Virus record (IMG/VR): IMGVR_UViG_3300034520_000200
Location: 1-64,000 of that record
Length of the DNA stretch: 64,000 nt
DNA from: a virus
Reading direction: 5' to 3' (one strand)
A program made the translations under genes and the position numbers. The first letter of the stretch is position 1, and every line of letters begins with the position of its first letter. Positions 15,507 through 24,465 of the stretch are shown here, in pieces. A model generated the notes under the pieces. It had not been told where the DNA came from. It searched no databases and saw only the letters and a list, made by a program, of their open reading frames with translations.

Positions 15507-16662
15507 CTAAATTCACCTCCTTTTTTATTATCAATTTAATTATACCATTTAGTACTCATAAAGTAAATAAAAATGTTTCTATTTATTATCTTTTTCCTCT
15601 TCTCCCCTCTCTAGTGCAAAATAAAAAGAAATATTAAACAAAAACTAAACTCATAACATAAAACTTAAATTGTAATCTTAAGACTTGGAAGAATTTTCCA
15701 AGTAGTATAAGTCAAGTATATATAAGTAAAAGTATAAAAAGAATTTCTTTTTAAAAAAGCTCTCTTAAAAAAACTTAAAAAGACTTTCTTTCTTTGGCTA
15801 TATATATAAGTACTAATAAACTTAAAAACATTAAAATTAAATTGAAACAATTATTTTAAGTAAATTAAGAACTAAAAACGAAAAATGAAAGGATATAAAA
15901 GGCTCTAAGGCTTAAAAAGCTAGATAGAAATGAAACTACACTGGGTATATTAATCGAGAGAAGGGCTGGAAGGGGAATGGAGGGCGGAGGGAGGGGGACG
16001 CGAGCTCTACACAGGCCCTCCAGAGCGCTTCTACCCACTATTTTTTGCTTTTGGAGCACTTCTCCACTCTCCAAAAATTTTCCAGTTTGTAACAAGTCTC
16101 TCGAAAGCTGGCTTAAGTATTCAAAATGAACAAAAGAATGTTATTTAGAATACTTCTGAAGCTTCTAAGCAGCCTTCGAACTCACTCACTCTTATACCTT
16201 TGGAGTACTTTAGGGTATTGAAGTGGTCTGAAGAAGCACAGAAGAGTACTTCAGAATAGGGCTCTTTTTTTCTGAAGCAAATTTTAAGAACTCAACACTT
16301 TATCCTCCCTATATATAAGGGTGCATGCCTTCGAAAGGGCTCTGAAAGAACAGAAGAGCACATCAGAAATGCTGTAATTCACTTTGGTACTTTTCTTTTT
16401 GGCTGTTGCGCTCTTCTTTTTCAGAGGCTTTTAAGGGCTTAAGAAGCGAAGTTGAGTGCTCTCATATGACAGCTCGCCACAGTCATCTACACAGGGTCGG
16501 GTACCCTTTTTCCGCGGGTTTTTCTCGAAAAACTCTTCTAATCACGCGATTCCACGGCTCATGAATTTTAGGGCTTGGAGGGCTCTTCAGAAGGGGCTCT
16601 GAAGACAATTGTAGGGCTCTTCTATTTTGTAATATGTCAGTTGGAGATTGAGTAATGGTTCT

Positions 16663-17296
16663 AGAGTGAGGAAGAAGTATTTTGCAGAATTAGTAAAAAT
16701 TTCGAAAGTGCAGACTGATTTTGCTACGTAAGATTCGAAAAAGAGCTGAGTTCAAACACCCCTATATATAATAGGGAGGTGAAGACTTGAAAACTGACTG
16801 TAGCGGGTTGTAGCGCTCTTCTGTTAAAAAAAGAAATTTATACATATTCATTACAACTAGGACACCAAGCCCAATCTAAACTACAACCACATATTGGGCA
16901 ATAGATGTAGTTCATGTCACTTTTAATTTTTGGAAAGTATTTTGTCTTCCAAATTTCAATTAATTTTTTTCTACTGATATGTTTTTCATTTTTCTTCATA
17001 TCTTGAATTTCGTTTTTGAAAGCTTCAATAGCTTCCGAACCAGTCATTTTATTAACCTCCTTTTTATTTTTATTATATCAAAAAGTTATCTTTAAGTAAA
17101 TAAAAAAGTTTCTTAAAGTTATGTGAAAGAGTGAGGAAGAACGAGGAAGCAAAAATTACAAATTTTGAGTAAGATTTTATGAAAATGATTATTTAAGATT
17201 CTAAAAATTATTGTGTTCGACTCCTCCTATATATAATAGGGAGGTGCACATTTGAAAATCGACTGTAGTTGTCTGTAGTGGTATGTAAAAAAAAGA
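16663..17296 (+). repeat. degenerate ~170-bp direct repeat, offset 465 bp, flanking the 16838-17047 cassette
   Basis: AGAGTGAGGAAGAA at 16663/17128 and CCTATATATAATAGGGAGGTG...TTGAAAA..GACTGTAG at 16761/17226. Confidence 0.8.
16838..17047 (-). CDS. small Zn-ribbon protein
   Basis: CPICG...CPSC; own promoter and RBS. Confidence 0.7.
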   Translation of the reverse strand: MTGSEAIEAFKNEIQDMKKNEKHISRKKLIEIWKTKYFPKIKSDMNYIYCPICGCSLDWAWCPSCNEYV

Positions 17297-17303
17297 AGGG
17301 TAA

Positions 17304-17555
17304 TTAAGCCCTTCCATCTAAACCACAATAGATACAGTAACTATCTTCATTAAATTCGCAATGATGTGTTTCTAATTCTTTTGCATATTGAATTTTTTCA
17401 TCTATAAATCTTTTTAATTCTTCCATGTCTTGAATGAATTTATCATACCCATCGCATTCTTCTTTAGTTATGCATCCGAGTCTATAATATTGGTTTTGTC
17501 TTTTGTGATAAACAAATTTGTCATTTATAAGAGCTTTTATTTCTTTTATATTCAT
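17304..17555 (-). CDS. hypothetical protein
   Basis: AAGGAGG RBS; terminal HC...CIYC. Confidence 0.7.
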   Translation of the reverse strand: MNIKEIKALINDKFVYHKRQNQYYRLGCITKEECDGYDKFIQDMEELKRFIDEKIQYAKELETHHCEFNEDSYCIYCGLDGRA

Positions 17556-17567
17556 AATTTTACCTCC

Positions 17568-17870
17568 TTAAAACCAAGATGCAAATTGGGGACTTATGTT
17601 CTTGTCAAAATAATCATCGACAAGCTGCTTTGCAATTTTGTAGTTTTTCATACTACCTTTATGATAATGTCTGTTTTTGATTGCAGATTTTAATACATAT
17701 TTTGTTGGGTTTTTAAGTCCTTTCAATAGCATGTCATACACCCATTCACAGTAATATTCTTTTTCTTCTTTGTAGTAATTTATCCATTCTTTAGCAGCTG
17801 TAGGAGTTAAATAACCAAGACTTTCGCAAATAAGATGTCCCATTATTCTTCTGTATTTCTTTTCTTTCAT
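17568..17870 (-). CDS. hypothetical protein
   Basis: AAGGAGG RBS; CESLGY.TP motif. Confidence 0.7.
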   Translation of the reverse strand: MKEKKYRRIMGHLICESLGYLTPTAAKEWINYYKEEKEYYCEWVYDMLLKGLKNPTKYVLKSAIKNRHYHKGSMKNYKIAKQLVDDYFDKNISPQFASWF

Positions 17871-18128
17871 CTTTTTTCCTCCTTTTCATTTATAATACTT
17901 ATATTATACAGAATGTCACAAGAATCTAGTTCTTCAGCTTTTTTTAGTATTTCTTCGTCAGTCCCTATCATAGTTTGTTGTCCAATTATGTTCCACCATG
18001 TTATTCTTTTCATTACAACTTCCTCCTTTTTTATTTTTCAATTTAATTATACCATTTCGTAAGCTTATTGTAAATAAAAATGTTTCTAGATTGGGCTCTA
18101 CAAAATAAAAAAGAGGGAATAAATCCCT

Positions 18129-18425
18129 CTAAAATTCAAGTTCAATTTCTTCAAATTGTTCTTTTAGCCATTTAAGTACTTGTTCGAATGTAACATTTCC
18201 TTTAAATATAGTGAAATATAGATCTAATGGTTCATAGTGAAGTAACAATTCATCATACGGTTCTTCATCTTCTTTCCATTGATTTTCTTCCCATTCTTTT
18301 TTGGAATAGTAGATAAAGAATCCTGTTGTTTTATTATCTTTATTTAGTACAATAAATGTTCTAGCATTTTCATCACCTTGATTAAAAGATGTATATTCTT
18401 TGACTTTAAATTTTTTGGTTAACAT
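18129..18425 (-). CDS. hypothetical protein
   Basis: GAGGAGG RBS. Confidence 0.7.
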   Translation of the reverse strand: MLTKKFKVKEYTSFNQGDENARTFIVLNKDNKTTGFFIYYSKKEWEENQWKEDEEPYDELLLHYEPLDLYFTIFKGNVTFEQVLKWLKEQFEEIELEF

Positions 18426-22766: not shown

Positions 22767-22895
22767 TTAATTCTGTATTTTCTTACGCCAGTTGATATAC
22801 TGCTTGACATATTCTCTGAATGAGATAGGATTTTCAACATCTTCGCAATACATCTTATACATTTTTTTGAGATTTCTGAATAGCTTTAGATTCAT
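22767..22895 (-). CDS. small hypothetical protein (42 aa)
   Basis: promoter and AAGGAGGTG RBS; MNLKLFRNLKK... Confidence 0.6.
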   Translation of the reverse strand: MNLKLFRNLKKMYKMYCEDVENPISFREYVKQYINWRKKIQN

Positions 22896-23026
22896 TGTTA
22901 TGTTCACCTCCTTTATTTATATTTTTTTGTTTTTATTATATAATAAAGTTTTCAAAAAATAAATAAAAATGTTTCTAACTGTTAAGTTAAATGGGAAGGG
23001 CTAAATTAGCCCTTCCCTTGTTATTC

Positions 23027-23482
23027 TTATTGCATTTCGTAATGTTCAAGATATTCTTCTACCAGATATCCTCTTAGTGCATTTCTTACTCCATTAAAGA
23101 ATTGAGCTTTTTCATGGTCATCTAGATCTTTTAATTCTTTATCAAGCTCATTTTCAGGATAATTTTTGTAAGTGCTTACAAAGTATGGAGCTTCGAATTG
23201 ATCGATTAGTTTTTTCAGATCTTCAATTGATGGCTTATCTTCTTCAAAGCTGTCAGAAAATCCAGTACCAAAGATGACTTGGCTTTCGAACCATTCTACT
23301 CCTTTCATATAAAGTTGATGTGCGCTTAGCTTCTTGCTCATTTTAACTCCTCCTTTTTCATAATTTGTTGTAATCTTATGCATAGTTTTTCCAGTGTTTT
23401 CAGGGCCTACACATCTTGACATGTTAATCTCCTCCTTTTCATTTTTAGAATTTAAGGGGCTCTTTATTAAGTTTTCGTTCAT
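23027..23482 (-). CDS. hypothetical protein with three in-frame RBS-ATG starts
   Basis: AGGAGG before ATGs at 23482, 23422 and 23341. Confidence 0.65.
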   Translation of the reverse strand: MNENLIKSPLNSKNEKEEINMSRCVGPENTGKTMHKITTNYEKGGVKMSKKLSAHQLYMKGVEWFESQVIFGTGFSDSFEEDKPSIEDLKKLIDQFEAPYFVSTYKNYPENELDKELKDLDDHEKAQFFNGVRNALRGYLVEEYLEHYEMQ

Positions 23483-23895
23483 TTTATTCACCTCCTTTCC
23501 AGTTGACTTAGTCTATTTAATTTTATTATTTTTTATATTATAAAATAAAGTTTTCAAAAAATAAATAAAAAAGTTTCTAACTCTTATTGTACATTGTCTT
23601 TTTATTCTTACAGTGTACTCTGCGCTTACTCTTTTTTTGTACTCTTTCAGTGTACTCTAATTTTGTATTCTTTCAGTAAGACTCTTACAGAGGGCTCTGC
23701 TCTATAAATGTTTTGTGTTCTTTTTAGTGTGCTCTTATTCTTGTTCATTGTAGTTTGTAGTCTTGTAGAGACTCTTGTCTGGAACTCTGTTATGCAGTCT
23801 TCTTTACTCTTATAGTGTAAAAGGGCTCTGAAGTTAGTTCTAGTCGGTTTTATGTTAGAAAAGGGCTCTGTTCTGGTGTTATATAAGGAGAGGCA

Positions 23896-24045
23896 TTACC
23901 TCTCCTTATATATTTCAATAGTAATCTGGATTACTGCTGTTATGTATATCTTCTGGAACTCTTTATAATGTATCTGGTTTTTGAACTCTTCTGGAAAACC
24001 TCTATATACTTCTTTTAACTTTCTCTCTTTTAACTGTTTAACCAT
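23896..24045 (-). CDS. small hypothetical protein (49 aa)
   Basis: AAAGGAGG RBS; stop embedded in a hairpin. Confidence 0.55.
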   Translation of the reverse strand: MVKQLKERKLKEVYRGFPEEFKNQIHYKEFQKIYITAVIQITIEIYKER

Positions 24046-24099
24046 ATTAAAACCTCCTTTAAATTTAAATTGAGGGGGGGGATTGCTCCCCCCTTTGCC

Positions 24100-24465
24100 T
24101 TATCCCTTGATTCCCGGGATCGGCCGTTTCCCTTGTTTCCAGGCCTCGGCGATTAGTTTTACCACCTTCCGCAGTTCTTCCAGGTCCCTCGTTTTCAACC
24201 TGCCGCACATTGTCCCGAGGTGTTTTGCATAGGCTGTTTGAGGAGTGATGTGTTCGTAATTGATTGCTTCGTATTGGATTGGGATGTTAACCTCGAGGTT
24301 GATTAGTGTTTGGTCTTTTACTGCGACGAGTTTTGCGATTCGAGTACCTGCCACGAACCACGTGGTGCCGGTGGTGCGTGTTTGGGGCTCTGCCTTAATC
24401 GATTTCACCTCCTCTTGTATGATTTTTACCCCTTGCAGATAGTTGTTGGTGGTTTTTGTGGACAT
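24100..24465 (-). CDS. H(L/M)GT-family paralog 5, first gene of the - arm, GC-richer
   Basis: RIAKLV..LEVNI..AYAKHLGT. Confidence 0.75.
   Translation of the reverse strand: MSTKTTNNYLQGVKIIQEEVKSIKAEPQTRTTGTTWFVAGTRIAKLVAVKDQTLINLEVNIPIQYEAINYEHITPQTAYAKHLGTMCGRLKTRDLEELRKVVKLIAEAWKQGKRPIPGIKG

Follow-up and report, generated by a model that had tools for sequence, protein, structure and literature searches.

A GGGCTCT heptamer array confined to the early-gene domain of an uncultured contractile-tailed phage: possible docking boxes for a DNA-binding protein

The first 64 kb (the window) of IMG/VR record IMGVR_UViG_3300034520_000200, a single 86,065-bp viral contig of 28.3% GC, contain 23 exact copies of the heptamer GGGCTCT on the plus strand and none on the minus strand. 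All 23 lie at 16259-24391, within a block of early genes; the remaining 77 kb of the contig have none, and AGAGCCC does not occur on the plus strand. (The contig is 54% complete according to CheckV, and confinement is therefore that of the assembled part.) Dinucleotide-preserving shuffles of the window generate an average of 1.56 copies (standard deviation 1.23, largest value 5), and none of 100 shuffles reaches 23. GGGCTCT is also the top 7-mer of the 15.9-24.5 kb segment, with 23 copies inside and 0 outside. An earlier sequence-only reading of this DNA had listed the same 23 co-oriented sites, and the match is exact; enrichment and strand-skew counts on the phage genome bear it out, with the skew restricted to the block. 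That reading took the heptamer to act at the DNA level, as an array of protein-loading sites or else as a Chi- or KOPS-like polar signal or a restriction decoy. The first part of the interpretation is supported and the last two proposals are not. The word is under selection, its core being invariant and its flanks free; it most plausibly acts as DNA; and the boxes could well be docking sites for a sequence-specific DNA-binding protein, probably encoded by the phage, through which the early block is controlled in the manner of operators or stoperators.

Twenty-one of the 23 copies are located outside credible genes: 16 are spread across eight terminator-to-promoter spacers and five are in a non-coding island of ~1.2 kb (15600-16837) at the edge of the box domain that is distal to the gene for the large terminase (TerL). 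That nearly all copies are in spacers and that the structural genes are free of them had been correctly noted before. Since the genes of the block are on the minus strand, AGAGCCC is the sense-strand reading of the box. The wider family AGAGYNC behaves in the same way: all 40 of its minus-strand copies fall in the block, and only 6 copies are read on the plus strand. It includes nine variant boxes, AGAGT(A/G)C, at 20320-23658 on the minus strand (plus-strand starts at 20320, 21743, 21764, 22308, 22326, 22360, 23615, 23639 and 23652), which lie between the AGAGCCC boxes and the promoters; these nine are all the minus-strand copies, and all are within the block. The core consists of seven positions that are identical in 23 of 23 copies, and its flanks are free: no position within 14-20 nt on either side of the box exceeds 0.4 bit, although the immediate neighbour on the sense strand is never G. 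One-mismatch variants of GGGCTCT are few (10 in the block). Spacers that are richer in boxes are also longer, and some boxes share flanks of 21-25 nt (repeat families D15, D18 and D19).

The contig comes from a contractile-tailed phage, with genes for tail sheath, tape measure, portal, large terminase and ribonucleotide reductase. No close relative was found among 50,697 deposited phage records, in which megablast of the 15.9-24.8 kb segment also found no match, and a scan of IMG/VR with the portal protein alone found no relative. A search with TerL returned 69 homologues at E <= 1e-20 (the best 79%, 73% and 71% identical), and the TerL profile located 56 loci in IMG/VR and 1 in species genomes; among cultured phages the closest, at 31% identity, are those of Streptomyces and Gordonia. 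The relatives with DNA upstream of the terminase gene are three IMG/VR records with TerL 53-54% identical to that of the target: G001 (111,051 bp, the same phage being also present as a contig of a metagenome-assembled genome, MAG), G002 (107,581 bp, with a 127-bp end overlap and so a circular assembly) and G003 (a 42,641-bp fragment). Each of the three has an array of GNGCTCT boxes, with a purine after the box, in the spacers between small genes that lie 4-10 kb upstream of terminase; the position ahead of the packaging genes is common to the target and to three of three relatives. In whole-record counts their boxes are confined as in the target, and box-dense islands recur in G001 (81.3-81.9 kb) and G002 (101.4-102.3 kb). 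The relatives most often have GAGCTCT, then GCGCTCT; GTGCTCT and GGGCTCT are rarer. The T at the seventh base is conserved, and the purine after the box is shared among the relatives, as is a weak preference for G four bases before it. A spacer that is homologous between G002 and G003 (71% mean column identity) has its boxes in the same places, with changes at their second base and the loss of one box. Outside the arrays the word is mildly avoided: summed over the four genomes, 12 copies are observed where permuted words of matched composition predict 47.6 and a Markov model of maximal order predicts 23.4. The other 53 IMG/VR TerL loci, which are either 58% identical and without upstream DNA or at most 42% identical, yield no array; neither do 24 loci from a metagenome scan with the TerL profile, of which the close ones are on 2.8-5.3-kb contigs that lack the upstream region. 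Conservation of the word across phages that share about half of their terminase residues argues that something reads the domain as a unit, and the sameness of the core in phages whose GC content ranges from 28 to 36% speaks for a reader carried along by the phage or one that is strongly conserved among hosts.

Strict co-orientation is a trait of the target and not of the system. Counting non-palindromic array boxes in a frame in which the terminase gene is '+', the target has 28 '+' and 2 '-' boxes and G003 has 15 and 2, but G001 has 20 and 10 and G002 has 14 and 12; to these must be added 2-5 AGAGCTCT palindromes per relative, and several clusters in G002 consist of inverted halves. The occurrence of both orientations and of palindromes implies a reader that does not need a fixed polarity. 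Orientation also appears to be uncoupled from transcription. Early cassettes and terminase gene point the same way in the relatives and opposite ways in the target, yet with respect to terminase the majority of boxes have the same orientation in both; the word thus does not seem to follow the direction of transcription. Taken over the four phages, spacers with leftward flanking genes have 24 '+' boxes and 1 '-', and rightward-flanked spacers have 30 and 20. (Set against its leftward genes, 28 of the target's 30 boxes are in one orientation; the 30 to 20 split is that of the relatives' rightward-flanked spacers.) Retention of the word on the TerL-sense strand in spite of inverted cassettes favours some genome-level polarity. 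Spacing is the other constraint: 55 of 55 gaps of at most 110 bp between adjacent same-strand boxes in the four phages measure 14-95 bp from start to start and none is shorter than 14, where an unconstrained arrangement would be expected to produce ~10 gaps of 7-13 bp (our own estimate, from about one box per 30 bp in clusters). There is no helical phasing at 10-10.5 bp (Rayleigh R = 0.02). The 14-bp minimum looks like one footprint per box.

The genes at 12.2-24.5 kb, on the minus strand, form a chain of single-gene cassettes, each with its own promoter and terminator. Read on that strand, a junction consists of a stem-loop terminator with a T run, 0-5 boxes, the motif AGAAAC(A/T)T(A/T)TT(T/G)(A/T), a promoter, and a ribosome-binding site with ATG. 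The first box comes ~10-30 nt past each terminator. Ten near-identical sigma-A-type early promoters (15539-23580) lie on the minus strand and none on the plus strand of the whole contig; they are built of a -35 element TTTA(C/T)N, a 17-nt spacer and TA(T/A)AAT, often preceded by TG, with a strong ribosome site and ATG to follow. Their repeats (families D1 and D2) are 62-84% alike, and they are the best-scoring of 66 promoter-like sites (39.4 expected). Terminator-like sites number 21 versus 4.4 expected, and several of the hairpins are bidirectional. The products of this chain are obscure: none of 20 early open reading frames (ORFs) has a Pfam family at E <= 0.01, one of eight scanned against PHROGs matches a family, itself of unknown function, and Rfam and tRNA scans found no matches. 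The early genes of the four phages are largely non-homologous, with the exception of one paralog family that is taken up below.

This cassette frame is of a known kind. T4-type phages have small, non-essential early genes framed by a strong sigma-70-like promoter and a stem-loop terminator, in repeated modules, the promoter-early stem-loop elements or PeSLs (PMC2839356). The frame of the target, with repeated promoter and terminator between small early ORFs, qualifies as such an arrangement; the heptamer does not, PeSLs being described there as promoter plus stem-loop, without a separate multi-copy heptamer between. The phage group also differs, the target TerL not being T4-like. Asymmetric multi-copy operator words are likewise a known kind; for multi-copy heptamer clusters that fill the spacers of one early domain, as in this phage clade, a search of the full-text literature with the box words found no published account.

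The proposal that the boxes are docking sites combines these properties: a short word that is exact, has free flanks, lies in non-coding DNA at a conserved position, keeps a minimum spacing, and is tolerated in either orientation. GGGCTCT would be the form taken in the target by an asymmetric box of 7-8 bp (GNGCTCT plus a purine), with one protein molecule bound per box. Occupancy of the boxes would allow an early domain of 8-10 kb beside the packaging genes to be handled as a unit, the bound protein shutting off or insulating the sigma-A-type single-gene cassettes after their products have been made. The reader would be a protein, most likely encoded by the phage, and its effect would be on early transcription. 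Co-orientation in the target would be mostly a by-product of array growth through local duplication of 21-25-nt units and of whole co-oriented cassettes; the flanks of that length that some boxes share fit such growth. The suggestion of protein-loading sites in the sequence-only reading is adopted here as the best account of the boxes.

Possible analogues are the repressor operators and stoperators of L5-type mycobacteriophages and clusters of initiator boxes, and an initiator-box variant of the docking proposal is possible. Cluster A mycobacteriophages have more than 20 copies of an asymmetric word that is read by a monomer and located in promoter regions and short intergenic spaces, and its orientation correlates strikingly with transcription (PMC9283540). 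The target resembles them in that its copies are all in one orientation relative to transcription and nearly all intergenic, in eight spacers and the island. It differs in the length of the word (7-8 bp rather than 13), in having up to 5 copies per spacer rather than one, and in the concentration of the copies in one 8-10-kb block rather than genome-wide; in its relatives the orientation relative to transcription is reversed or mixed, and the target looks virulent, with an early-cassette layout. General scans, none of them aimed at gp71, turned up no gp71-like repressor.

Several facts sit awkwardly with docking sites that regulate the early block. The sense strand reads AGAGCCC in the target but mostly GNGCTCT in the relatives, and this lack of a conserved orientation relative to transcription is not what an orientation-dependent stoperator mechanism predicts. 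The largest cluster of G003 (6 boxes, at 5106-5246) lies between convergent genes and has no promoter. Three of the ten identical promoters, those at 22976, 17113 and 15580, are more than 420 bp from any box, and where there are boxes the gap from the nearest of them to the promoter ranges from 18 to 86 nt; the boxes are therefore not part of the promoter. The candidate readers are not free of difficulty either: a SpoIIID-family gene is found in only two of the four array-bearing records (G002 and G003 are without it), four of the six target copies of the shared paralog family lie outside the box domain, and that family has no known fold or function, the leads to DUF5655 being weak (E = 0.064 in 2 of 12 members; atlas scores of 0.85-0.87). 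Two related schemes were rejected. A phage promoter in which the box serves as a -35-like element would have a second conserved element at fixed spacing, and there is none; a phage sigma factor as reader finds no Sigma70_r4 match in the target and only sub-threshold matches in G001 and G002.

Two kinds of protein encoded beside the array are nevertheless candidates for its reader. The first is a small DNA-binding protein of the SpoIIID family, encoded at 24936-25223 on the plus strand by the first rightward gene beside the block (PF12116, 55.1 bits, E 8.4e-15, the cut-off being 27 bits); G001 encodes a homologue (84599-84829). SpoIIID of Bacillus subtilis is reported to recognize an 8-bp motif, often at multiple sites per region, and to act both as repressor and as activator (PMC517825). 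The likeness is of a small DNA-binding protein whose gene, in the target, adjoins an array of 7-8-bp boxes; its absence from half of the array-bearing records is the difference. Together with a gene for a small acid-soluble spore protein (SASP), the SpoIIID-family gene points to an endospore-forming host.

The second candidate belongs to the KHLGT family, the only protein family common to the early blocks of all four phages. Its domain of ~110 residues has invariant G, F, R, K, E, N, A, H, G and T positions. The target has six copies, at 6307-6750 (+), 13299-13706 (-), 14325-14963 (-), 21097-21570 (-), 24100-24465 (-) and, beyond the window, 78787-79713 (+) of the contig, two of them inside the box domain; each relative has 2-3 in or beside its array. 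The member at 21097-21570 on the minus strand is a candidate reader; that at 24100-24465, also on the minus strand, is GC-rich and is the first gene of the leftward block. (The segment 24065-24465, which comprises this gene and its terminator, is ~50% GC within a phage of 28% GC, although the protein is one of the phage's own paralogs.) The family is rare: out of 1.84 billion, 94 cluster representatives match it at E <= 0.001. No Pfam family corresponds to it, its profile retrieves nothing credible among PDB sequences and only the same three records in IMG/VR, and tblastn of one member against cultured phages gives no match. Among 91 representatives the domain is found fused behind a PIN_4 nuclease in 4, behind GIY-YIG in 1 and behind zinc ribbons in 5; fusion to nucleases and zinc ribbons suggests that it is a nucleic-acid-binding module.

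Another account of the array, less likely but to be taken seriously, makes it an end-related signal. The box domain (~15-25 kb) would be a long terminal repeat of the T5 or SPO1 type, entering the cell first, with boxes that are read during DNA entry, end protection, recombination between repeats or concatemer processing; the island, at 15.6-16.8 kb, would be the inner boundary and a T5-like injection stop. Chi-like function would be a special case of such reading. The evidence that brings this account into view is sequencing depth. Four public runs from one study (soil and subsurface metagenomes) carry the stretch with the array unchanged, and in all four the depth of Logan contigs, which is a single value per contig without read ends, is 1.4-2x higher over ~15.2 to 24.9-25.4 kb, that is, over the box domain and the island. 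In run X1 depth is 20.8 at 11,864-22,749 and 25.2 at 22,722-24,867, versus 12.3 in a 46-kb contig from 24,877 onward; in X2 it is 49.1 in the block versus 30.7 outside; in X3 it is 6.98, 6.98, 6.2 and 6.7 up to 25.4 kb versus 4.3-4.7 beyond, with 5.4 at 14.6-15.1 kb; and in X4 it is 9.4-11.1 at 15.2-22.7 kb versus 7.26 beyond 28.2 kb and 5.7-8 before 15.3 kb. The deeper block may be a collapsed long terminal redundancy or a module common to two strains. The boxes and all 10 block-type promoters are limited to exactly the deeper domain, and, in the TerL frame, all four phages have the same layout of island, box cassettes and packaging genes.

A terminal location also gives meaning to the retention of the word on the TerL-sense strand across inverted cassettes (the 24 to 1 bias of leftward-flanked spacers). 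In T7, short repeats of one orientation adjoin the terminal repeats. The nearest cultured TerL relatives, at 31% identity, package exact ends, Streptomyces phage Gilson having a 766-bp direct terminal repeat. The terminal repeat of T5 contains conserved untranslated regions with arrays of boxes for a host protein, proposed as an injection stop (bioRxiv 10.1101/866236). These T5 regions are non-coding, are located among pre-early genes, have short asymmetric box sets and are better conserved than ORFs (10.1101/866236); the target resembles them in its box-dense island at the domain edge and in the depth hint of terminal redundancy. It is unlike them in that its boxes are not DnaA boxes, that they number in the dozens and occupy every second spacer where T5 has eight in fixed pairs, and that a terminal repeat is only hinted at by contig depth. 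DnaA boxes, TT(A/T)TNCACA, are in fact absent from 15-25 kb, and the 11 in the window are matched by 12.1 expected by chance. For the same reason, and with boxes spread over 8 kb, an origin built of DnaA boxes or iterons was rejected.

What counts against an end-related signal is, first, that a 1.4x-2x difference in one figure per contig, from one study, is also what two strains sharing a module would produce; second, that two relatives show little or no polarity (20:10 and 14:12); and third, for its Chi-like special case, that a MAG holding a relative's contig has no excess of the word and that the core is the same in phages of 28-36% GC, whose hosts are probably different. An end-protecting function encoded nearby is also not secured: the match of the ORF at 25210-25542 (+) to Mu Gam is below threshold (24.8 bits versus a cut-off of 28.3), and the ORF would, if a real Mu Gam, encode a DNA-end-protecting protein beside the block. 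What keeps end reading alive is the combination of boxless promoters, varying distances, a promoterless cluster, unconserved orientation, the conserved layout next to the packaging genes and the step in depth. In its most specific form, which is rather improbable, a clade of uncultured Firmicute-type myophages would keep GNGCTCT in the TerL sense across a terminal redundancy of ~10 kb, regardless of the direction of the early genes there, as a genome-polar rather than transcriptional signal; read at entry of the DNA end or at recombination between the terminal copies, it would set the pace of entry or serve to protect and recombine the ends, with the island as inner stop.

Either account would matter. 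The timing and silencing of the first-expressed host-takeover genes of large virulent phages are known for few model phages, and here a short word, repeated dozens of times, sets off an entire early domain. As an entry point for study the array offers a short exact word, two adjacent candidate readers, and natural variants in orientation and in the second base. An end signal, if that is what the array is, would open a way to study how the DNA of phages of anaerobic spore-formers enters the cell and recombines at its ends; a genome-polar one would be a cis-acting end signal of a kind new to tailed phages.

That the boxes are instead a by-product or vehicle of cassette shuffling is improbable. 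They would then be parts of repeated terminator-promoter modules of the PeSL kind, in which homology drives recombination and co-orientation simply follows the cassettes; PeSLs are described as cassettes that mediate modular shuffling (PMC2839356). The cassette chain, with its strong promoters and terminators, the 62-84% likeness of the D1 and D2 repeats, the excess of terminator-like sites (21 versus 4.4) and the non-homology of most early genes of the four phages, one paralog family aside, all suit this notion. However, homology-driven recombination depends on long similar stretches and does not call for a 7-bp word whose flanks are free. The heptamer has stayed exact amid diverged surroundings, which argues for direct selection on the word itself; and boxes occur in the cassette-free island, while three cassette junctions have none.

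Action as RNA has still less to recommend it. AGAGCCC in read-through transcripts, or GGGCUCU in antisense transcripts, would be the site of a nuclease or of an antitermination or termination factor, and the location of the first box ~10-30 nt past terminators, the bidirectional hairpins and the occasional fusion of the paralog family to PIN nucleases are in keeping with such a function, which nonetheless appears very improbable. The strand of the word relative to transcription differs between the target and its relatives, and G002 uses both; the boxes are in the least transcribed DNA, after terminators and before promoters; and the word has no Rfam match and no conserved pairing partner.

A connection with restriction, as a GRGCYC decoy or as same-strand escape from an enzyme that needs inverse sites, can hardly be right. 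Type III restriction enzymes do require inversely oriented sites, GGGCTC does fit GRGCYC, and all target copies are co-oriented. However, the relatives' arrays contain GCGCTCT or GTGCTCT, which do not fit GRGCYC, in 25 of 85 boxes (29%), and inverted copies lie side by side; the T at base seven and the purine after it are conserved; and escape from restriction predicts loss of sites, not the observed 15-fold excess. Genes for PF01555 and PF00145 methyltransferases are found in none of the four records, and the word was rejected as a methylation target on the same count. The Chi- or KOPS-like polar signal of the sequence-only reading finds no support in co-orientation, which is strict in the target alone (15:2, 20:10 and 14:12 in the relatives), in the distribution of the word, which is confined to one block, or in a MAG, which shows no clear excess: G004, which holds a relative's contig though its status as host is unproven, has 522 GNGCTCT in 2.1 Mb versus ~526 from composition arithmetic, and 265 of the reversed word. 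A guide of the KOPS or SRS type was rejected in particular because there is no genome-wide arm skew, 23 of 23 copies lying within 8 kb and those of G001-G003 being likewise confined.

Along the block, the boxes (all on the plus strand) are arranged as follows. The island has five, at 16259, 16337, 16580, 16594 and 16614 (16259-16620), overlapped only by ORFs of 31-52 amino acids that lack ribosome sites; it consists of an A/T-rich part at 15.6-15.9 kb and a GC-richer part that contains the 5 '+' boxes and the sole 2 '-' boxes. Single boxes follow at 18093-18099, in the spacer between the terminator at 18112-18130 and a promoter with its -35 at 18074 (a gap of 18 nt from box to -35), and at 18923-18929, 28 nt upstream of the -35 of the promoter at 18894-18866. 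Two boxes at 19783-19812 come directly after the terminator at 19830-19849, as read on the minus strand. Four boxes at 20365-20494 are in a 308-bp spacer between the terminator at 20511-20531 and the promoter at 20276-20248, and four more at 21785-21928 are in a 401-bp spacer between the terminator at 21945-21967 and the promoter at 21714-21686. The box at 22348-22354, in the spacer 22227-22459, has AGAGTRC variant boxes on both sides. The box at 23457-23463 is 21 nt past the first of three in-frame starts, each an ATG with a ribosome-binding site, of the ORF at 23027-23491, and the stretch that contains it may be leader rather than coding sequence. Three boxes at 23692-23869 occupy the spacer 23492-23895, and the last, at 24385-24391, is coding and falls within the GC-rich paralog gene 24100-24465.

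The right edge of the box domain is a divergent control region (24466-24935) that is extremely AT-rich and contains tandem repeats. The tandem 40-nt and 34-nt repeats at 24743-24913 include a duplicated rightward promoter; run X4 has a variant of this region without 33 bp (24837 to 24871), and contigs break here in all four runs. Near the left edge, an 85-nt repeat is found at 16729-16813 and 17194-17278 (76% identical) and also near 16300. Its centre is a near-perfect palindrome, CACCTCCCTAT...ATAGGGAGGTG, one arm of which is an anti-Shine-Dalgarno-like word; on the plus strand a ribosome site and a conserved 8-codon mini-ORF then follow. A block that is possibly related to this repeat, ACACCCACCCTGGCCCT, is present in spacers of G002 and G003 and is 100% identical between the two.

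Wider scans for the word returned unrelated material. Strand-biased enriched words of the more distant TerL relatives are dispersed coding words and not arrays. A scan of IMG/VR for three GGGCTCT 5-35 nt apart gave at least 120 matches, and the loci inspected are tandem coding repeats or longer iterons of unrelated phages; a scan with the 16-nt AT-rich promoter word gave at least 120 single chance matches and was uninformative. In one unrelated phage, IMGVR_UViG_3300025426_000052, non-coding units containing GGTCAGGGCTCT are repeated at 13-35-nt spacing at 5600-5900; they look iteron-like and happen to share the heptamer. Several close TerL homologues (among P0003, P0004, P0009, P0012, P0019 and P0024) are ~1,040 residues long, with intein and homing-endonuclease domains (PF14528, PF14890) that the target TerL does not have. 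Upstream of the target TerL gene, the ORF at 27100-28011 has weak matches only (DUF1804 and a PHROG 'DNA binding protein') and counterparts of 48-52% identity in the relatives; it may encode the small terminase. A thymidylate-kinase-like gene (28036-28662) lies between it and the large terminase gene.

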